Below are positions 1,673 to 53,197 of a stretch of 64,000 nucleotides of DNA, in pieces. The DNA comes from Octopus vulgaris. Its lineage: Eukaryota. Where the stretch lies: assembly GCA_951406725.2 (NCBI GenBank), contig OX597840.1, forward strand, positions 38,750,001 to 38,814,000. Reading direction: 5' to 3'. The first letter of the stretch is position 1. Each line of letters starts with the position of its first letter. The notes under the pieces are model-generated. The model did not search any database. It was not told the origin of the DNA and saw nothing but the letters and a program-made list of their open reading frames with translations. Made by a program: the position numbers and the translations under genes.

Positions 1673-2251
1673 CAGGAAAAAGAAAAAGAAAAAAAGGCTA
1701 TTGATACTGCAGTTGCCCTCTCGTTGGCTGGCGTCGGTTTTAGTAAGAGATCCAAGATTCTTAAAAACGCCAATGTTCTTATGGGCATAGTGTTCCATCT
1801 GGCCACTCTTTTGGTAAAATACGCAGATATTTATGAGGAAGCTGTGTAGTTCAAATAAACTTCAGATAAGAGCGGATAAAATATTGCATGTGCTTCTTTC
1901 TTCATAACGCATATCCTTAGTTTAGCTGCAATAGTATAACAGTAAACAAACAAGTTTTGCTGGATTCGCTGAAAAGCCTCGGTGCCACGTTCATCTGTTC
2001 GGAAAGCATTATATTCTATTATATTGCAATGTTTAACAAAAGATCTGAAATTGTGAATTCTGGCAAATTCTACCAGAAACGTTTAACAAGCAATTACCAA
2101 CTAGCAACTGGCTAGCAGATATTATTTCATACATAATACATTTATTATACCCTGCAAAATAAAACCATATTTCGAAAACACTTATATAATCAATAACACT
2201 AATATTTAGGTGATACGATTAGTTGTGGCTGTGTGGTAAGTAGCTTCTTAC

Positions 2252-4451
2252 CAGACAGATGTGCTGTTTTTTGCTCCTGCAAATGTCACGTGTTTGAACG
2301 TGAAATGTTGAACTTTTGACTCGGTGACAGGTAAGACGTTCTGTATTTTTAGAAGCATAGTGAAGTTTATTGCTTGCTTAATGTTATTTAGCAGTTAACG
2401 TTATCTAGCATTAATATTTTTTTGCGGGTAATAGACTTCACTTTACTTCAGATATATTTCTCTGCCTGTTGTCGTGTCTAAGGTCTCACTCTTTAGTGAG
2501 AATTGTGCTTTTTGAGGAGGCGTAGCCCCTCCGCAAAAATTAATTTGTTTGCTTGTGTTTTACTACTTCGCAAGAAAATTATAAAAATAAGCCACTATTG
2601 GATTACCTTTCGGACCCATTTTTGTGGCGGTTGTGTTGCAGTTGCGGCGTTCCAGGTTCAACCCAGGCCGGGAGTACCGCAAGGCCAGAATATTTTTGCT
2701 GTGTTTTTTCTGTTTATTAACTTTCTTTTGAACTTCATTTACCCCCCCCCTTTTGTTTTTTTTCTTTATTGCGACTTTCCGTTAATTTCTTCCCTTCTGT
2801 TGTACTTTCTCCTTTTTGTTTTTTCAAAAATCTATCAAATTTTATTTAGACTTTTGAACTTTTTTCTTCCTGCTTTTGAGTTTAATTTGAATATATTTTT
2901 AAAAAAACATGGCAATGAAAAATAACAAAATTTTGGAGTGGGAAATCATACCACCCAAAAAGTGGTTAAAAGACCGTGAAGATAGGACGGTGGTGTTGAG
3001 AACCTACTCCAAGGCACATGACACCATCGCCCTATTCGAAAAGACGGCAATTGAGGAGGAGTTGGAAGAGTATTTGCCAACAATTAAATTCATTTCCAGG
3101 GGTGTCAAATATGCAACGGTGTGGTTGCTATTTGACACCCCTGAAGAGGCTTGCATATTTGCTAGCAAACCCTTGGAGGGTAAGGAAATCTTATTCCTGC
3201 CCACGTACAAAAAAAAGAAATTGATGAAAGCTTGGATCTGCGGACTGCCACCCGACATAGAACCCGAGTGGATAGAGGAGACTATCCGCCGGGGTCTGGG
3301 TGACAGCGAAACTAAGCTCCTCAATGTAAAAGTTCTTCCTGCGGCTGCTTGGGTTGGGTCGAAAGCAATTTTGACTCTGTGGACACAATCAGCCATTCTG
3401 GTTCTTCCAGATTTTTTGAAAATGGCCGGGTGCAGGTACCCGGTGATGCTTGAGGGTCGCCCCCCTAAGTGTCATCGGTGCTTGGAGTCCGGCCACATAA
3501 AGAAGAACTGTCCTCGGGAACAAAATAGGATCCCGGAACAGTTAAGTAAAACCCCTCTAGAAGAGGGAACGATAACGGCCGAGAAAGCAGAGGACTCCTC
3601 AAACAGAGGCCGAAAGAGGAAGGTGAGCAACAATGGGTGCTCACCAAAGGATAATAGGGATGAGGAGAGGAAGGCGAATCTTCCAGCCACGGAGGAGACG
3701 CACCCTCCCTCAGTTGAAAAGGGAAAAAAAAAGAAAAAGAGGAAGAAAAACGGGACATTACCGGCTGTCAGTGTAGCACCGGAATGTCGCGGAACTACGT
3801 CGGTTGGGGTTGTGCCACTGACAAGAGAAGGAATACCGTTGGCGGAAACTGTGCCGCCAACGAAAGAACTAAATGTGTTGGTCCTCTTCTATAGAGGAGG
3901 AGAAATTGAAAAAGTGATGGAAGAGCACTACAAGGGAGCACCTTTAGCCTTCACACAGGACCCCGAATGGCCTCCGCAGGTAGCTGTGGAGGCCGTGGCG
4001 TTCGACGTGACGCTAGGGCTAAAGGAGCTCAACGAAGATTATAACTTGGTCCCGGGCGACGCGAACTCGGAACTTGACTACGTTCTGAGGGAGGCGTGGT
4101 TGATGGTGGAGGGCGCGGGCACAAGCTATTTCGAGGACGATATGTATTATTAGTAATGGACTTAAGTCCCAAAATTGAAAAATTGTTAGAGGATTAATAC
4201 CTCGTTTTGTATTAATAATGGACTGCTAAGCCCAAAAATTGGGAAAAATTGTAAGAGGTTTTATACCTCGTTTTGTGTTTATCTTTTTAAAAAGAACAAT
4301 GTTTTAGAGAAGCAAAAGTCGGCGGGCGCTTTCTGTCTTCTCCCATCCTTATCATCTTTCTTTCATTATCATTCACTTCATTAATGTCCTCGTCCAGCCC
4401 GCAAAGCTAACTTAATCTGTGTACTGCCTTTATGGCAAATGTTTTGAAATA
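2252..4451 (+). mobile_element. ORF1-only (HAL1-like) non-autonomous non-LTR element, copy 1, inserted into the head of a type-B SINE
   Basis: Preceded by the SINE head GTGGCTGTGTGGT-AAGTAGCTTCTTAC (TSD 2238-2251). Followed by AAGTAGCTTGCTAAC (4452-4466) and the rest of the SINE. Highly similar to 50599-52785 from 2564 onward. One long ORF, no RT, ends ...GTTTTGAAATA. Confidence 0.9.
2909..4153 (+). CDS. 414-aa ORF1/Gag-like nucleic-acid-binding protein (putative RRM-like N-terminus, CCHC zinc knuckle, basic low-complexity linker, C-terminal WPPQVA domain)
   Basis: Intact ORF with C-x2-C-x4-H-x4-C motif CHRCLESGHIKKNC preceded by LPDFLKMAG..YPVMLEGRPPK, an arrangement typical of L1/Tx1-clade ORF1. 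Contains a KKKKKRKK basic stretch. Duplicated at 51292-52532. Confidence 0.85.
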   Translation: MAMKNNKILEWEIIPPKKWLKDREDRTVVLRTYSKAHDTIALFEKTAIEEELEEYLPTIKFISRGVKYATVWLLFDTPEEACIFASKPLEGKEILFLPTYKKKKLMKAWICGLPPDIEPEWIEETIRRGLGDSETKLLNVKVLPAAAWVGSKAILTLWTQSAILVLPDFLKMAGCRYPVMLEGRPPKCHRCLESGHIKKNCPREQNRIPEQLSKTPLEEGTITAEKAEDSSNRGRKRKVSNNGCSPKDNRDEERKANLPATEETHPPSVEKGKKKKKRKKNGTLPAVSVAPECRGTTSVGVVPLTREGIPLAETVPPTKELNVLVLFYRGGEIEKVMEEHYKGAPLAFTQDPEWPPQVAVEAVAFDVTLGLKELNEDYNLVPGDANSELDYVLREAWLMVEGAGTSYFEDDMYY

Positions 4452-4827
4452 AAGTAGCTTGCTAACCAACCACATGGTTCTGGGTTCAGTCCCACTGCGT
4501 GGCATCTTGTGCAAGTTGTCTTCTGCTATAGCTCCGGGCTGACCAATTCCTTGTGAGTGGATTTGGTAGACAGAAACTGAAAGAAGCCTGTCGTATATAT
4601 GTATATATGTGTATATATGTGTGTGTTTGTCCCCCCCCCCAATATCGCTTGTCAACCGATGCTGGTGTGTTTACGTCCCCGTTACTTAGCGGTTCGGCAA
4701 AGAGACCGATAGAATATGTACTAGGCTTACAAAGAATAAGTCCCGGGGTCGATTTGCTCGACTTAAGGCGGTGCTCCAGCATGGCCGCAGTCAAATGACT
4801 GAAACGAGGAAAAGAGTAAAAGAGTAA
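4452..4827 (+). mobile_element. Type-B SINE body (head at ~2221-2251, separated by the 2.2-kb insertion)
   Basis: Matches the intact copies at 44143-44597 and 45263-45662. Ends in an (AAAAGAGT)n tail. Confidence 0.9.
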
Positions 4828-5330: not shown

Positions 5331-5425
5331 CTGTACATATTATTTAGAACTGTTTGATTTGGTTCCATGCTAATTAATATGTCAAGAAGAAGCCTGTCTC
5401 TTTCAGGCTACATATATATATATAT

Positions 5426-5648
5426 TTATTGCCCACAAGGGGCTAAACATAAAGGGGACAAACAAAGATAGACAAAGAGATTAAGTCGATTACATGGACC
5501 CCAGTGCGTAACTGGTACTTTATTTATCGACCCCGAAAGGATGGAAGGCAAAGTCGACCTCGGCGAAATTTGAACTCAGAACGTAACGGCAGACGAAATA
5601 CGGCTACGCATTTCGCCCGTCGCGCTAACGATTCTGCCAGCTCGCCGC
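5426..5648 (-). mobile_element. Type-A SINE monomer
   Basis: Reverse complement of 31001-31230. Confidence 0.9.
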
Positions 5649-5899
5649 GTTTCAAGCTACAGATCGCCGAATGGAGAGATACATGTTGTTCACAGTGGCT
5701 ACCATAAGATAAACTCCTATTGGTGAAGGAGGATCATGTGATGGTATCAGCGAATATCAGGTCTTTAGCGACAACAGTTCCTTTCTAAAGACTCTATTGC
5801 TGCTTCCTGTTCAGCCACGCGGTCAAAAAACAAAATCTTCTAAATGAACTGGTGTCGCTACGCATCTGATATTCTTTGGTAACACCATGTGACCCGTCA

Positions 5900-6510
5900 T
5901 TATTTCTTTAAATTAGCTATAAAGGCTTTACATAGATGGAAGCAAATGCGGGATGGACAACAACACAAATGAAATCAATGATGAGTAAATTAATGATGCT
6001 GATGAGGGAAACAGACGGCGCACGCCGATCGCTGCTTCCCGAAAACACTGTTCTTTTTTTCTCTTTTATAAAAACAAATTGAGGTTATAAACTACTTATT
6101 ACATAGTTCAATGGGACACAAAGTCCTTGCAAATGAGACACTAAGCCTCTTACATTTTTCCATGCTGGGCCCTATGCTCCTACAATACGAGGAAGTAAGC
6201 CTCTTGCTTTTTCCGCCCTGGCCGCACCAGACCAGGCTCAACGCGTCATTCAAGTATTTTTATTGTGCCCTGTCGGGGTGCTTCAACTGGGGGCGGAATG
6301 CGTCTTCGGGAACGGAGTTCATTTCCTTGAGCATATCCGTCCCTGACACGACCTTCGCAGCCACCTGCGGAGGCCATGCAGGGTCATCAATACAGGCTAG
6401 AAACCCTCCCCTCCGATCCTCTAGGGTAAACCTTTTCATAAATTCTTGAATTACCCCTCCCTCGTGGGAGAAGATTACAAATTCCTGCTTCACCCAGAGA
6501 GAGGCATAGT
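5900..6510 (-). mobile_element. Diverged, 5'-truncated relative of the ORF1-only element (ORF1 C-terminus plus 3' UTR)
   Basis: ORF 6260-6565(-) reads VIFSHEGGVIQEFM..LACIDDPAWPPQVAAKVV..MLKEMN, versus VLFYRGGEIEKVM..LAFTQDPEWPPQVAVEAV..GLKELN. Its downstream sequence aligns with the 3' UTR of copies 1 and 2 (AAAGAACA.TGTTTT, TCGGCG.GCGC, GTCCA.CCCGCA, GCCTTTAT.GC.AAT, GAAATAA). Confidence 0.8.
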
Positions 6511-6512
6511 TT

Positions 6513-7359
6513 GTGTCACGCATGTGCGAGCCCACAGAGTTAAAGAGACACTTACAATATTTCATTCACCGCATGCAGTTCTCAGGTTACAGCCATAAAG
6601 AAAGGATCAGAGTATACAAAGGAGCCATGAAGAAATTTGATACTATCTTATGTAATGATAGGAATGGGATTTGCCCACTCTATAGGAGCAAGTCATGGAA
6701 CACTATGGAAAGACAAAGAAAAAAATAGGGAAGGCCAACTCCTGGTATGATAGCCGTAAATACCAGAGTGTCATGTTCGTTGCCACCACCCCGGGAGGTG
6801 AACTGACGTACCGCTTTAGATGGACCCTAGACAAACTTAAGCTAAGAATTAATGTTGTTGAAAAGCCAGGCAACCCTATCAAATCTATAATTGGTAGAAC
6901 CTATCCTTTTAGTAGAACCCCCTGTACGGATAAGTACTGTACTGTTTGTAGATTTAACCCACAAACAAACTGTAAAGCCAGAAATGTAGTCTATAGTATA
7001 AGATGTATAGAGGGACGATGCAGTAACAAGACAACGGCATACGTAGGGGAAACGGCAAGAAGCATAGGAGGGCGGGTAAATGTGCATTGGAGACAACTCA
7101 AGGAAGGTAAAAGCTAATCGATTCTGTACCAACATGCCGAACAGGAACACGGGGGATCAATCAATAACATAGAAATTAAAATATTATCCACACATAGATC
7201 AGATGCAACAATTAGATAAATTACAGAAGCTACACACATAATAGAAAATAAACCTAGCCTGAATAGAAAACTAGAATGGAGCACTAACACAAACCACAAC
7301 ATATGACAATAGAGGATCCTGAAAACATAATAAATACTCAGATAAATAATAGAAATAAA

Positions 7360-24269: not shown

Positions 24270-24975
24270 ATATGTTTGTGTGTCGTGTTTGTCCCCCCAA
24301 CATCGCTTGACAACCGATGCTGGTGTGTTTACGTCCCCTTAACTTAGCGGTTCGGCTAATAAGTACTAGGCTTACAGAGAATAAGTCCTGGGTTCGATTT
24401 GCTCGACTAAAGGCGGTACTCCAGCATGGCCACAGTCAAATTACTGAAACAAATAAAAGAGAACCCGAAAGGTCAAACGGTAAAGTCTACCTTGGTGGAA
24501 TTTGAACTCAGCCCCTAAAGACAGGCGAAACGTCACTAAACATAGGCGCAGGAGTGGCTGTGTGGTAAATAGCATGTTTACCAACCGCATGGGTCCGGGT
24601 TCAGTCCCACTGCGTGGCACCTTGGCAGAGTGTCTTCTACTCTAGCCTCGGGCCGACCAAAGCCTTGTGAGTGGATTTAGTCGATGGAAACTGAAAGAAG
24701 CCCTACGTATATATGTATATATATATATATATGCGTGTGTGTGTTTGTGTGTCTGTGTTTGTCCCCCTAGCATTGCTTGACAACCGATGCTGGTGTATTT
24801 ATGTCCCCGTTACTTAGCGGTTTGGCAAAACTGACCGATAGAATAACTTAGCGGTTTGGCAAAACAGACAAAAGAATAAGTCCCGGGGTCGAGTTGATCG
24901 ATTAAAGGCGGTGCTCCAGCATGGACGCAGTCAAATGACTGAAACAAGTAAAAGAGTAAAAGAGTAAAAGAGTAA
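23835..24975. mobile_element. Nested SINE cluster: type-A (-) fragments, a partial type-B copy at 24185-24460 and a full type-B copy at 24543-24975 (+)
   Basis: Direct sequence match to the other copies. The 24543 copy has an uninterrupted head (empty target site). Confidence 0.85.
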
Positions 24976-44142: not shown

Positions 44143-44303
44143 GGCGCGGGAGTGGCTGAGTGGTAAGTAGCTTGTTTACCAACCACATGGTTCCGGGTTC
44201 AGTCCCACTGCGTGGCATTTGGACAAGTGTTTTCTACTATAGAGTCGGGCCGACCAAAGCTTTGTGAGTGGATTTGGTAGACGGAAACTGAAAGAAGCCC
44301 GTC

Positions 44304-45262: not shown

Positions 45263-45662
45263 ACAGGAGTGGCTGAGTGGTAAGTAGCTATCTAACCAAC
45301 CACATGGTTACGGGTTCAGTCCCACTGCGTGGCATCTTGGGCAAGTGTCTTCTGCCATAGCCCCGGGCCGACCAATGCCTTGTGAGTGGATTTGGTAGAC
45401 GGAAACTGAAAGAAGCCTGTCGTATATATGTATATATATATGTATGTGTGTGTGTGTTTGTGTGTGTGTGTTTGTCCCCCTAGCATTGCTTGACAACCGA
45501 TGCTGGTGTGTTTGCGTCCCCGTCGCTTAGCGGTTCGGCAAAAGAGACCGATAGAATAAGTACTGGGCTTAAGAAAGTCCCGGGGTCGATTTGCTCGACT
45601 AAAGGCGGTGCTCCAGCATGGCCGCAGTCAAATGACTGAAACAAGTAAAAGAGTAAAAGAGT
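45263..45662 (+). mobile_element. Full type-B SINE (empty target site)
   Basis: Same structure as 44143-44597. Confidence 0.9.
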
Positions 45663-46814: not shown

Positions 46815-47214
46815 CTCTTTCCCTTTTACTTGTTTCAGTCATTTTGACTGCGGCCATGCTGGAGCACCGCCTTTAATCGAGCAACTCGACCCCGGGACTT
46901 ATTCTTTGTAAGCCCAGTACTTATTCTATCGGTCTCTTTTTTGCCGAACCGCTAAGTGACGGGGACGTAAACACACCAGCATCGGTTGTCAAGCAATGCT
47001 AGGGGAACAAACACAGACACACAAACAAACACATATATATATATACATATATACGACAGACTTCTTTCAGTTTCCGTCTACCAAATCCACTCACAAGGCA
47101 TTGGTCGGCCCGGGGCTATAGCAGAAGACACTTGCCCAAGATGCCACGCAGTGGGACTGAACCCGGAACCATGTGGTTGGTTAGCAAGCTACTTACCACA
47201 CAGCCACTCCTGCG

Positions 47215-47217: not shown

Positions 47218-47299
<82 letters not shown>

Positions 47300-47327
47300 G
47301 AGAAAGAAGCAACAAGAATGGATAAGT

Positions 47328-47418
47328 TTTTAGTACAATCGTTTCATACAAAGACAGGCTTTATTAAAAGTTGCAAAAATTGCAGCATATAAACGTATCC
47401 CGTACTCATCAGCTAAAA
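47328..47418 (-). ncRNA. Mirror copy of the hammerhead in the left arm of the palindrome
   Basis: Reverse complement of 47854-47944. Confidence 0.7.
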
Positions 47419-47853
47419 TACATGTGAGTTCTCTAGACATCTTAGTGGTTGAGGCTATACTCATGAAGTAATGTAGATAATTAAGTAACATAAACAGATT
47501 TCCAAAGTTCATTAAAGTTCTTTAAAGATGATGTACAGTCTTATCACAGATTTTTAAAAAAGTTTTAATAGCATCACAGAGAAGGTGACCTAATCCATAG
47601 TGTACATATGAATTTCCAGAGATATGAGGAGGGATTACATACTCCTCATATCTCTGGAAATTCATATGTACACTATGGATTAGGTCACCTTCTCTGTGAT
47701 GCTATTAAAACTTTTTAAAAATCTGTGATAAGACTGTACATCATCTTTAAAGAACTTTAATGAACTTTGGTAATCTGTTTATGTTACTTAATTATCTACA
47801 TTACTTCATGAGTATAGCCTCAACCACTAGGATGTCTAGAGAACTCACATGTA

Positions 47854-47944
47854 TTTTAGCTGATGAGTACGGGACACGTTTATATGCTGCAATTTTTGCA
47901 ACTTTTAATAAAGCCTGTCTTTGTATGAAACGATTGTACTAAAA
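47854..47944 (+). ncRNA. Type-I hammerhead ribozyme with long stem II (right arm of palindrome)
   Basis: TTTTAG-CTGATGA-GTAC...GTAT-GAAAC-GATT-GTA-CTAAAA. Stem I is TTTTAG/CTAAAA and the cleavage triplet is GUA. Confidence 0.7.
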
Positions 47945-48089
47945 ACTTATCCATTCTTGTTGCTTCTTTCTCGCTTATAATCACCCCACATTACTGTATT
48001 GTTAAAACCGTATAGTTTTTTGGTGCATCTAAGTTAGGTACCATATTCAAGTAAATTCATTAAAATTGACTTGAATCTTTATTGCTTTT

Positions 48090-49570: not shown

Positions 49571-50598
49571 TATTGTGGTCGTTCTTGTCGTTACGTCATA
49601 GCGCTCCATGCTATTCCTTTTCTTTCCACGTAGAATTTTTCCCATTTTTCCTAAATGGTGTTTGGTTTTATTATTTATTAATTTTTCTAATTACCAATAT
49701 TTCTCAAATTCCTTGAGGTAGCATTTGTAATGTCTTTTTTTTATTTTTGATATTTTCTCATTTTTCCTGCCAAAACTAAGTTTGAATTCATTGCTGCTTT
49801 TTAATCAAGAGATACATGTATATCATTAGTTCTCTATTTAAAGGTCGTTCGACTTTGATGTGACTAAAATCTGATCAAAGTCATTTTAAAACTGTCACCG
49901 CCAGGACTCTTTTCCAGGTAAATGTGTACAGAATTACATTTACAAAGAATTTTCTTTCTAAAATCACGCATTCAAGTGATTGACTGGACTATCGGATTTT
50001 GTTATGCATCGCTGGTTACAGTACTCTTTGCATACTTTCAGCTTTCAAAAGATCTTCCTTGCTGGCTAGGCCGGCGGGTCAACATTCTCTCTGATGAGAA
50101 TGGTAACCTGTCACTGGGTTACCCATTTGCAGTTGAAGTAACTTGACCAACACGAAATGAAGTGTTTTTGTAAGTAGCACAACGTTCCGCCGGGCTGGAA
50201 ATCGAAACAGCGATCTCCCGATCAGGGATGATTCAATTGCTATTTCTCACAAAGCGATCAGCAATTTAGTCACCGTCGTCAACGGGTACCTCGCCTTCAA
50301 ACATTGGTTGATTAACTCACTGATTCACTGTCTCAGTAATTGATTGACGTGTTTACCCCAGACACATTTCTAGCCAAAATGTGCTACACCTTTAAACCTT
50401 GTAATTTGTGTTGCTGAGCGCAGAGATTCGAAACAACATATCTAGGATTACATCAATGCATCTGCTGCTTTGAAAGACGATAAGGAGAAACTTAACGGAA
50501 TGCTGACGTTTATTATTAGAAGATCAATGCACCAATCATACGCTAAATAAATTTCTAGTAAGGAGCAGGAGTGGCTGTGTGGTAAGTAGCTTGCTAAC

Positions 50599-52785
50599 AC
50601 ACATGCGCAGTTAGTCAGTTGCTTCCTGTTAAGCCAGAGTGGACGCGAGTCAACCAGCTCCGTCCAATTAAAGAAAAAAGATCAAAAACGGAAAGTTGTC
50701 GAGGTAAGTGATTTTGTTTATTGTGAGTTGGGCATAATTTATTGCGTGCCAATTATTATTTCAGTAAGTTGTGTCCAACTCTGAGACAATTTCGCCTGCT
50801 CTCGGCGGCTGCCGTTTTTGTGTTTATTGAAAAAAAAAAACAGTGGAGGGGCGTATCCTCGGAATTCAATACAGTTACTGTTAAAATTACCGTTGGCGGT
50901 AGCCAGAGCTATGTTTGGGTTTGTTGAACTTATTCTCTTGTCAGAGTACTTCGCAAGAAAATTATAAAAATAAGCCACTATTGGATTACCTTTCGGACCC
51001 ATTTTTGTGGAGGTTGTGTTGCAGTTGCGGCGTTCCAGGTTCAACCCAGGCCGGGAGTACCGCAAGGCCAGAATATTTTTGCTGTGTTTTTTCTGTTTAT
51101 TAACTTTCTTTTGAACTTCATTTAACTCCCCCTTTTGTTTTTTTTTCTTTATTGCGACTTTCGGTTGATTTCTTCCCTACTGTTGTGCTTTCTCCTTTTT
51201 GTTTTTTCAAAAATCTATCAAATTTTATTTGGACTTTTGAACTTTTTTCTTCTTGCTTTTTGAGTTTAATTTGAATATATTTTAAAAAAACATGGCAATG
51301 AAAAATAACAAAATTTTGGAATGGGAGATCATACCGCCTAAAAAGTGGTTAAAAGACCGTGAAGATAGGACGGTGGTGTTGAGAACCTACTCCAAGGCAC
51401 TCGACACCATCACCCTATTCGAAAAGACGGCAATTGAAAAAGAGTTGGAAGAGTATTTGCCAACAATTAAATTCATTTCCAGGGGTGTCAAATATGCAAC
51501 GGTGTGGTTGCTATTTGACACCCCTGAAGAGGCTTGCAAATTTGCTAGCAAACCCCTGGAGGGTAAGGAAATCTTATTCCTGCCCACGTACAAAAAAAGA
51601 AATTGATGAAAGCTTGGATTTGCGGGCTGCCACCCGACATAGAACCCGAGTGGATAGAGGAGACTATCCGCCGGGGTCTGGGTGGCAGCGAAACTAAGCT
51701 CCTTAATGTAAAAGTTCTTCCTGCGGCTGCTTGGGTTGGGTCAAAATCAATTTTGACCCTGTGGACCCAATCAGCCAATCTGGTTCTTCCAGATTTTTTG
51801 AAAATGGCCGGGTGCAGGTACCCGGTGATGCTTGAGGTTCGCCCCCCTAAGTGTCATCGGTGCTTGGAGCCCAGCCACATAAAGAAGAACTGTCCTCGGG
51901 AACAAAATAGGATCCCGGAACAGTTAAGTAAAACCCCTCTAGAAGAGGGAACGATAACGGCCGAGAAAGCAGAGGACTCCTCAAACAGAGGCCGAAAGAG
52001 GAAGGTGAGCAACAATGGGTGCTCACCAAAGGATAATAGGGATGAGGAGAGGAAGGCGAATCTTCCAGCCACGGAGGAGACGCACCCTCCCTCAGTTGAA
52101 AAGGGAAAAAAAAAGAAAAAGAGGAAGAGAAACGGGACATTACCGGCTGTCAGTGTAGCACCGGAATGTCCCGGAACAACGTCGGTTGGGGTTGTGCCAC
52201 CGACAAGAGAAGGGATACCATTGGCGGGAACTGTGCCGCCAACGAAAGAACTGAACGTATTGGTCCTCTTCTATAGAGAAGGAGAAATTGAAAAAAAAAT
52301 GATGGAAGAGCACTACAAGGGAGCACCTTTAGCCTTCACACAGGACCCCGAATGGCCTCCGCAGGTAGCTGTGGAGGCCGTGGCGTTCGGCGTGACGCTT
52401 GGGCTAAAGGAGCTCAATGAAGATTATAGCTTGGTCCCGGGCGACGCGAACTCGGAACTTGATTACGTTCTGAGGGAGGCGTGGTTGATGGTGGAGGGCG
52501 CGGGCACAAGCTATTTCGAGGACGATATGTAATTATTGAACTGTTAGTATTTATAATGGACTGCTAAGTCCAAAAATTGAAAAATTGTAAGAGGCTTAAT
52601 ACCTCGTTTTGTGTTTATCTTTAAAAAGAACAATGTTTTAGAGAAGCGAAAGTCGGCGGGCGCTTTTTGTCTTCTCCCATCCTTATCATCTGTCTTTCCT
52701 TAACATTCACTTCATTAATGTCCTCGTCCAGCCCGCAAAGCTAACTTAATCTGTGTACTGCCTTTATGGCAAATGTTTTGAAATA
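50599..52785 (+). mobile_element. ORF1-only (HAL1-like) non-autonomous non-LTR element, copy 2, inserted at the same SINE position
   Basis: Perfect 15-bp TSD AAGTAGCTTGCTAAC at 50584-50598 and 52786-52800. SINE head at 50561-50598 and SINE remainder at 52786-53197. Same 3' end as copy 1. Confidence 0.92.
51292..52532 (+). pseudogene. Second copy of the ORF1-like gene, split by a 1-bp deletion in an A-run
   Basis: ORFs 51292-51606 and 51603-52532 together match the 414-aa protein. The A8 run in copy 1 (TACAAAAAAAAG) is A7 here (51592-51598). The knuckle reads CHRCLEPSHIKKNC. The frameshift could be a homopolymer sequencing error. Confidence 0.8.
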
Positions 52786-53197
52786 AAGTAGCTTGCTAAC
52801 CAACCACATGGTTCCGGGTTCAGTCCCACTGCGTGGCATCTTGGGCAAGTGTCTTCTGCTATAGCCCCGGGCCGACCAATGCCTTGTGAGTGGATTTGGT
52901 AGACGGAACTGAAAGAAGCCTGTCGTATATATGTATATATATATATATATCTGTGTGTGTGTGTGTATGTGTGTGTGTTTGTGTGTCTGTGTTTATCCCC
53001 CTAGCATTGCTTGACAACCGATGCTGGTGTGTTTACGTCCCCGTCACTTAGCGGTTCGGCAAAAGAGACCGATGGAATAAGAACTGGGCTTACAAAGAAT
53101 AAGTCCCGGGGTCGATTTGCTCGACTTAAGGCGGTGCTCCAGCATGGCCGCAGTCAAATGACTGAAACAAACAAAAGAGTAAAAGAGTATAAAAGAG
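52786..53197 (+). mobile_element. Type-B SINE body (head at 50561-50598)
   Basis: Continues exactly from the TSD. Confidence 0.9.

Follow-up and report, generated by a model that had tools for sequence, protein, structure and literature searches.

HAL1, HeT-A and Ag-Sponge are 'ORF1-present' non-autonomous long interspersed nuclear elements (LINEs), which code only for the protein of the first open reading frame (ORF1p) and rely on an autonomous LINE (PMC5786205; PMC5753468). The ORF1p of such LINEs has been suggested to multimerise with helper proteins (PMC5786205). In Drosophila, HeT-A together with TART and TAHRE features an element without reverse transcriptase (RT) and an RT-bearing partner, which are site-restricted and form mixed head-to-tail arrays (PMC5537684). 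The system described here was found in a 64,000-nucleotide stretch of the Octopus vulgaris genome (contig OX597840.1, positions 38,750,001 to 38,814,000; hereafter the window), in which two copies of an element that codes for ORF1 alone interrupt a short interspersed nuclear element (SINE) at one same nucleotide of its head. These copies very probably belong to a long-lived ORF1-only lineage, made up of elements without long terminal repeats (non-LTR elements), that is copied by target-primed reverse transcription (TPRT) through the ORF2 protein of a site-specific L1/Tx1-type element of the same genome, the helper.

Site-specific LINEs of the Tx1 clade and their targets include Tx1L, which inserts into Tx1D, Keno, which inserts into U2, Kibi/Koshi, and Tx1-Mar, which inserts with SINEU-3 into Mariner-N4_AMi; SINEU-3 is a non-autonomous passenger that shares the target of Tx1-Mar, and repeats, other transposons among them, are frequent targets of the clade (PMC4494074). 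A conserved 3' stem-loop is the mark of 'stringent' pairs of LINE and passenger (PMC3747384). The uniform 5' junctions of R2 have been attributed to target sequence on its RNA (PMC3774820), and the SIDEs of R2 and R1 are target-specific, non-autonomous and non-coding derivatives (PMC3414825). A CCTTGGG motif is named for the CORE domains of SINEs (PMC5786205), and OR2 is a CORE SINE of octopus (PMC4758252). The annotation of octopus repeats reports 13 recently active L1-Tx1 families, the targets of which are not described in its main account (PMC13282606). The list of non-LTR targets given in PMC8869645 names no SINEs, and Tx1 is not mentioned in the available part of PMC9115989.

Insertion into the SINE head

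Both inserts open directly past ...GTGTGGT in the SINE head, at 2238 in copy 1 and at 50584 in copy 2, and the SINE continues at 4452 and 52786, respectively. This same-nucleotide insertion had been proposed from the letters of the window alone (the sequence-only reading) together with unrelated outer flanks and four empty sites, and all three proposals hold: comparison of the outer flanks found no similarity between the copies, the empty sites are present, and the pattern of the SINE head has 7 matches in the window and none in 100 shuffles. The host SINE features tRNA-type A and B boxes and a CCTTGGG motif, and ARAGORN found no tRNA gene in the window. The description of two like copies of ~2.2 kb stands for their bodies, which are 93.7% identical and alignable solely over 2564-4451 and 50947-52785, and fails for the first 312 bases of copy 1 and 348 bases of copy 2, which do not align and are mutually unrelated. 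These 5' modules, u1 and u2, are each a separate repeat family. ORF1 is intact in copy 1 (414 amino acids), whereas the frame of copy 2 is lost because one base differs within an A run. Among named proteins, the nearest belong to Octopus sinensis and Argonauta. Module u1 is also carried by a body that is ~70% identical (loci L049 and L062), with the switch at one same boundary, and the 5' modules are thus exchanged among elements.

Searches for further copies covered a 2.8-Gb genome assembly. The 30 best 3'-end matches were examined (40 listed, 2152 candidates) and all 30 are followed by AAGTAGC, of which 29 continue into the SINE body and one into another element. The 3' end joins the target directly in 30/30 of these best copies and there is no poly(A) tail. 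The exact 28-base pattern of the 3' end occurs 216 times and has AAGTAG appended in 211, which bears out the genome-wide targeting that had been predicted from the two copies. The SINE to the right is variable, with 10 different 16-mers among 30 copies, and this speaks for independent insertions; the segmental duplication that would have undone the reading was looked for, and what was found are unrelated outer flanks and, to the right, SINE subfamilies that differ among copies. At three exact variants of the site the numbers of filled and empty sites are 211 and 29,729, 265 and 29,603, and 93 and 4,516, so that only ~0.7-2% of intact sites are filled and the SINE family in its entirety is little affected. 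The insert sets the A and B boxes 2.2 kb apart, which would destroy the RNA polymerase III promoter of the SINE, and SINE heads may serve as a safe harbour. An arms race in which the SINE escapes the LINE was considered and is given little weight, since filled sites are so few beside empty ones. The SINE-head pattern was also seen six times with 167-189-base spacing at C1:2101842-2102772, as a small tandem array.

The probable helper element and the shared 3' end

The helper was located with a pattern for the filled right junction, which gave 265 matches. Classification of the first 30 by type of 3' untranslated region (UTR) gave 22 ORF1-only ends, 7 helper-type ends (6 with ORF2 homology) and one that is neither. 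The helper is 5.45 kb at full length and features an ORF1 of 467 and an ORF2 of 1133 amino acids, both of which are intact at two of the 22 loci examined (L202 and L208). Its ORF2 contains Exo_endo_phos, RVT_1 and zf-RVT domains, so that the apurinic/apyrimidinic endonuclease (APE), the RT and the C-terminal zinc-binding region are all present; among solved structures the best relative is LINE-1 ORF2p (E-value 8e-67). Similarity among 19 full-length copies is 97.5-99.8%. The junction is identical in 30/30 copies examined (best 30 of 40 listed), one of them with one A fewer, and the 5.45-kb element is thus of the kind that the sequence-only reading proposed to look for, one that encodes APE and RT and shares both the target and the 3' end. 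At one helper locus (L200, C7:4860300-4866500) the copy lacks ~2.9 kb internally and has normal junctions; a one-off deletion of this type could seed new non-autonomous families.

The element is the likely helper and appears to be of L1/Tx1 type, a place in the Tx1 clade being suggested by its domains, ORF1 type and target preference. None of the 120 listed homologues carries a Tx1 or L1 family name, and the ORF2 tree holds only elements of this genome. The trees were built from cluster representatives of matches over 160-165 amino acids only, and the target-associated ORF2s long enough to enter form one clade (100/99). A Pfam zf-RVT search, in which 30 of 150 scored matches plus 20 chosen regions were examined from 25,801 candidates, returned mostly untargeted L1/Tx1-type families, and 1/30 of the matches examined ends at the site.

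The helper and the ORF1-only element both end in a 4-bp hairpin, a spacer and GAAATA without poly(A), and their DNA similarity is confined to the last ~35 bases. Over 68 distinct ends, 93.8% of the cells in the hairpin are paired and 16 two-sided changes are seen, a count that relatedness of the rows can inflate; 8 of 76 rows had been removed beforehand (4 false matches and 4 near-duplicates). None of 500 shuffles scored as high and slid controls were all far lower.

The ORF1 protein and its selection

The sequence-only reading described a single CCHC-type ORF1 as the whole coding content, and this was confirmed: Pfam finds only a weak zf-CCHC match in the 414-residue protein, its look-alikes in the Atlas are CCHC/ZCCHC3-type clusters, and among the delimited loci there is no ORF2 remnant in ORF1-only units, the sole match being the deleted helper copy L200. 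A model of residues 1-215 predicted from a 44-row alignment has a predicted local distance difference test score (pLDDT) of 90 and matches tandem-RRM proteins with E ~1e-4, compared with a pLDDT of 39 from a 3-sequence alignment. ORF1 is accordingly modelled as RRM-RRM-CCHC. This is a type I ORF1, the type defined by RRM plus zf-CCHC (PMC5203782). Past residue 215 the protein continues with a basic low-complexity stretch and then a less conserved C-terminal part. The helper ORF1, in which zf-CCHC was found, is homologous to the folded RRM-RRM-CCHC region across 196 amino acids with 30% identity. A tree of 18 ORF1 representatives places the 11 ORF1-only rows in one clade (100/100) and the 7 autonomous-type rows apart.

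The ratio of nonsynonymous to synonymous substitution rates (dN/dS), for which the earlier reading had suggested a test, amounts to 0.22 for the pair of window copies and to 0.11-0.23 in comparison with 13 copies of distant subfamilies (dS 0.9-2.1, residues 1-215). For 35 young copies dN/dS is 0.12 for shared changes and 0.53 for singletons. These values indicate that the ORF1-only lineage, a ~2.2-kb non-LTR family with lengths that are uniform within families, is old and that its ORF1 is under purifying selection.

Junctions, duplications and arrays

The 15-bp target-site duplication that was first read from the window, and taken to be degenerate in copy 1, is better described as ~8-10 duplicated bases plus target-like sequence on the element's own 5' end. 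The left sequence is identical in 11/13 copies with module u1 and a SINE on the right, whatever the right-hand target reads, and copy 1 therefore displays no decay. Of 34 informative left junctions of full-length copies, 19 carry the family string, 1 reads like the target and 14 are one-base or hybrid variants, with 18 further junctions being uninformative. Since the left side past about base 9 tracks the element family and not the target, the elements appear to carry a few target-like 5' bases. Seven 5'-truncated copies feature duplications of 8, 8, 9, 10, 10, 17 and 36 bases, and truncated copies at the old SINE variant duplicate that old variant. The true duplication is accordingly ~8-10 bp in most cases. 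Short duplications and 5'-truncated copies arise from the helper as well as from the ORF1-only elements. The duplications, the 5' truncation and the many copies are what is expected of a family that spreads by TPRT, as this one appears to.

Head-to-tail arrays mixed with the helper are present for a minority of copies. Right flanks in which one element follows another make up 3/60 of those examined, and several array loci were picked for their tandem look, so that the sample gives no array frequency. One locus on contig C7 has 12 element-to-element junctions in 22 kb, in which subfamilies and autonomous types are mixed. This stack at one target site (C7:13456212-13478441; L132, L067 and L133) includes truncated units and has at its head an element from a family that is mostly untargeted, and it is possibly an insertion hotspot or trap locus. 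Within it, oriented positions 6475-9500 of L067 hold two autonomous-type ORF1-like stretches without an ORF2 match, which may be a second independent ORF1-only derivative.

A splice-donor-like motif recurs in the unrelated 5' modules and in the helper 5' UTR, 75-120 bases from the junction (2330-2336 and 50703-50709 in the window). Genomic copies keep the sequence downstream of it, and no splice joint that fits the motif was found among the joints listed (62 more being unlisted) for contigs of four presumed RNA runs, which cover the element piecewise. An internal promoter of initiator/downstream promoter element type was considered and rejected, as the GACG(C/T)G motif recurs at 20-22, 30 or 59-70 depending on the module and its spacing is not fixed.

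Age layers of elements and SINE variants

A third copy at 5901-6600 on the minus strand of the window belongs to an older subfamily, for which 18/25 loci examined continue with AAGAA and 0/25 with AAGTA. Examination of 12 of the 93 filled sites of the old variant found ORF1-only-type ends at 8, an ORF2-bearing element at 1 and other ends at 3. The ORF2 at the old-variant site is 78% identical to that of the helper and groups with it in the tree. The SINE bodies behind the three variants have mean similarities of 95%, 87% and 78-84%. Older elements thus reside at older SINE variants, and the association has lasted across SINE subfamilies. At two old-variant sites the element is of a mid-age subfamily that is seen in the younger variant too. 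Exact 3' ends without AAGTAG number at most 5/216, a figure for which the count of usable old sites is not in the denominator; it is no more than suggestive of an active avoidance of the old AAGAAG variant by young elements.

Proposed mechanism and alternative explanations

The core claim of the sequence-only reading, a coding but non-autonomous element that is sequence-specific and mobilised in trans, is supported. In the mechanism proposed for the ORF1-only lineage and its helper, the helper endonuclease would nick the SINE head and the helper RT would recognise the shared 3' hairpin. Packaging of the parasite RNA by its own ORF1p may take place in cis, and this would account for the selection on ORF1. 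A few target-like bases at the start of the transcript would anneal to the cut target and prime second-strand synthesis, and full-length copies would thereby acquire uniform 5' junctions, as has been suggested for R2. These bases would also rebuild the target, so that later insertions stack head-to-tail in mixed arrays, and template switches between related RNAs could swap the 5' modules.

Several results weigh against this mechanism. Helper and parasite have only ~35 terminal bases in common and their ORF1s are just 30% identical, so that the case for pairing them is made by the target, the junction and the hairpin that both possess. The one element among the zf-RVT matches that ends at the site is of a mostly untargeted family and ends at an array site. 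The 14 variant left junctions of 34 are cases in which 5' joining was not clean, and a search of three loci against Rfam for a 5'-end ribozyme gave no match up to an E-value of 1, though the end may have an undescribed fold. The ORF1 model and tandem-RRM proteins have template-modelling scores (TM-scores) of just 0.24-0.33. An unbroken ORF1 is present in only 4/34 full-length young copies; the breaks that were seen lie largely at homopolymers, and some of them may stem from errors in the assembly.

A wider form of the proposal, which is tentative and on balance doubtful, is a three-tier parasitism that has persisted through at least 3 SINE subfamilies. The tiers would be the SINE head, the site-specific LINE, and an ORF1-only lineage that out-copies the LINE ~3:1 by means of the last ~35 bases. 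The choice of target would be written partly in RNA, by the 5' target mimic and possibly by pairing of 3' read-through with the cut target. If this were so, each insertion would renew the site and stacks of a dozen unrelated elements would accumulate, and specificity could drift with the SINE (AAGAAG old, AAGTAG young) without the endonuclease alone changing.

It is improbable, though the best placed of the alternatives, that the true helper or parent belongs to another autonomous family, one outside the sample, and that the 5.45-kb element has no more than the site in common with it. The long branch that separates the ORF1-only ORF1s from the helper ORF1, the restriction of shared DNA to just the last ~35 bases, and the portion of the zf-RVT candidates that was examined are compatible with it. 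However, the helper-type ends at the target (7/30, and 1/12 at the old variant) share one 3'-UTR type, the target-associated ORF2s form a single clade, and the helper is young and intact, as parasite copies that are 99% identical require. It is very improbable that a single ancient insertion was spread as a composite of SINE and insert or by segmental duplication, the site being inherited and not targeted. Within a family the string at the left junction does not vary, and the same SINE variant lies to the right of both window copies, as such a unit would have it, but the differing right flanks and unrelated outer flanks contradict it, elements also insert beside other elements, and the same nucleotide is used by unrelated 5' modules, by ~70%-identical subfamilies, by truncated copies of 70-350 bases and by the helper. 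A reading of the ORF1-only copies as internal deletions of the helper, either dead-end or recent ones, is hardly credible and is refuted by the lack of any ORF2 remnant in the delimited loci, by DNA similarity to the helper only at the last bases, by an ORF1 that is 30% identical and in its own clade, by dS of 0.9-2.1 between subfamilies with dN/dS of ~0.2, and by uniform lengths within families, even if L200 demonstrates that such deletions happen.

Features of the window and other repeats

Table 1. Coordinates of the two insertions, the older copy and the empty target sites in the window.
Feature	Position	Strand
SINE head, A-box part, left of insertion 1; first bases of the head missing	2226..2237	+
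Left copy of the target-site duplication (AAGTAGCTT)	2238..2246	+
5' module u1 of copy 1; opens with element-borne target-like bases	2247..2563	+
Body common to both window copies (93.7%)	2564..4451	+
Intact ORF1, 414 aa; predicted two RRM-like domains and CCHC knuckle in aa 1-215	2909..4153	+
3'-terminal 4-bp hairpin and GAAATA end, common with the helper; no poly(A)	4425..4451	+
Right copy of the duplication and SINE remainder (B box 4483-4493)	4452..4826	+
SINE head left of insertion 2	50565..50583	+
Left junction, copy 2: duplication of ~9-10 bp and target-like bases borne by the element, here equal to the target	50584..50598	+
5' module u2, unrelated to u1	50599..50946	+
Body of copy 2; ORF1 at 51292-52532, frameshifted in an A run	50947..52785	+
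Right duplication and SINE remainder, copy 2	52786..53197	+
Older ORF1-only subfamily, decayed 3' part, ~70% to copy 1; relatives in the older SINE variant	5901..6600	-
Empty SINE target site	24555..24578	+
Empty SINE target site	44153..44176	+
Empty SINE target site	45270..45293	+
Empty SINE target site	47183..47206	-

Other repeats were observed in the window and elsewhere. A second type of SINE at 5420-5660 on the minus strand features a 3' tail that, by eye, is like the ends of untargeted L1/Tx1-type families, and this likeness suggests that those families are its partner LINEs. A 140-amino-acid frame at 6695-7117 on the plus strand has a weak GIY-YIG match (E 0.01), adjoins the old ORF1-only copy and is probably a Penelope-like fragment. 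The 688-base stretch at 47293-47979 is near-perfectly self-complementary (97%) and is likely an AT-rich simple repeat or palindrome. On contig C2 (73046133-73067990; L131, L157 and L158) a 5.4-kb L1/Tx1-type element forms a head-to-tail array with five zf-RVT matches spaced ~5.4 kb and no SINE target motif; tandem arrangement is also seen in several further untargeted families.

Comparison with known systems

A SINE-targeted LINE with an ORF1-only passenger was not found in the literature searched, a search that left Repbase, Dfam and the supplement and library of PMC13282606 outside. The ingredients are each known, ORF1-only elements from HAL1 and HeT-A and targeting from Tx1; it is the combination that was not found there. 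The proposed pair adds SINE heads to the repeats that are used as targets by site-specific LINEs. Repbase is often the first record of families of this kind. In annotation, repeat libraries will miss nested elements such as these or merge them with the SINE, and the age-layered SINE variants are a fossil record of target drift. As the helper is young with intact copies and the passenger would need only the ~35-base 3' end, the pair is a ready test system. It is suited to asking why a non-autonomous element keeps its ORF1, for cis packaging or for capture of ORF2p, and how far target choice and 5' joining of LINEs are guided by RNA, which bears on LINE-based tools for gene insertion.

The host SINE resembles OR2 in its A and B boxes and its CCTTGGG motif, and the name is a lead only, as the comparison was by motif and not by sequence. 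R2 features a restriction-like endonuclease, an HDV-like (hepatitis delta virus-like) ribozyme and a target in 28S ribosomal DNA, whereas the octopus elements gave no ribozyme match in three loci. The likeness to the Tx1 clade consists in an APE-type, sequence-specific element that uses transposons as targets and has a passenger at the same target. The available part of PMC4494074 names neither a SINE target nor a protein-coding passenger for this clade, whereas the octopus system has a tRNA-type SINE head and a passenger that codes for ORF1.

The octopus elements, like the HAL1 class, code for ORF1p alone and have no ORF2. HAL1 has a 3' poly(A) tail. The octopus ORF1 is modelled as RRM-RRM-CCHC and carries no Transposase_22, the type II form of mammals, and the family differs from HAL1 in its single-nucleotide specificity, the absence of poly(A) and its mollusc host. 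HeT-A is alike in being an RT-less element with an RT partner, in mixed head-to-tail arrays with its helper. However, HeT-A derives from Jockey, carries a poly(A) tail and is added at chromosome ends, whereas the octopus family is L1/Tx1-like, neither telomeric nor of Jockey type, and has its cut site in tens of thousands of dispersed SINE heads. The system is real and well supported as one that works like HAL1 or HeT-A with a Tx1-like helper; strictly it is neither, and it represents an invertebrate, strictly site-specific counterpart of HAL1/HeT-A.

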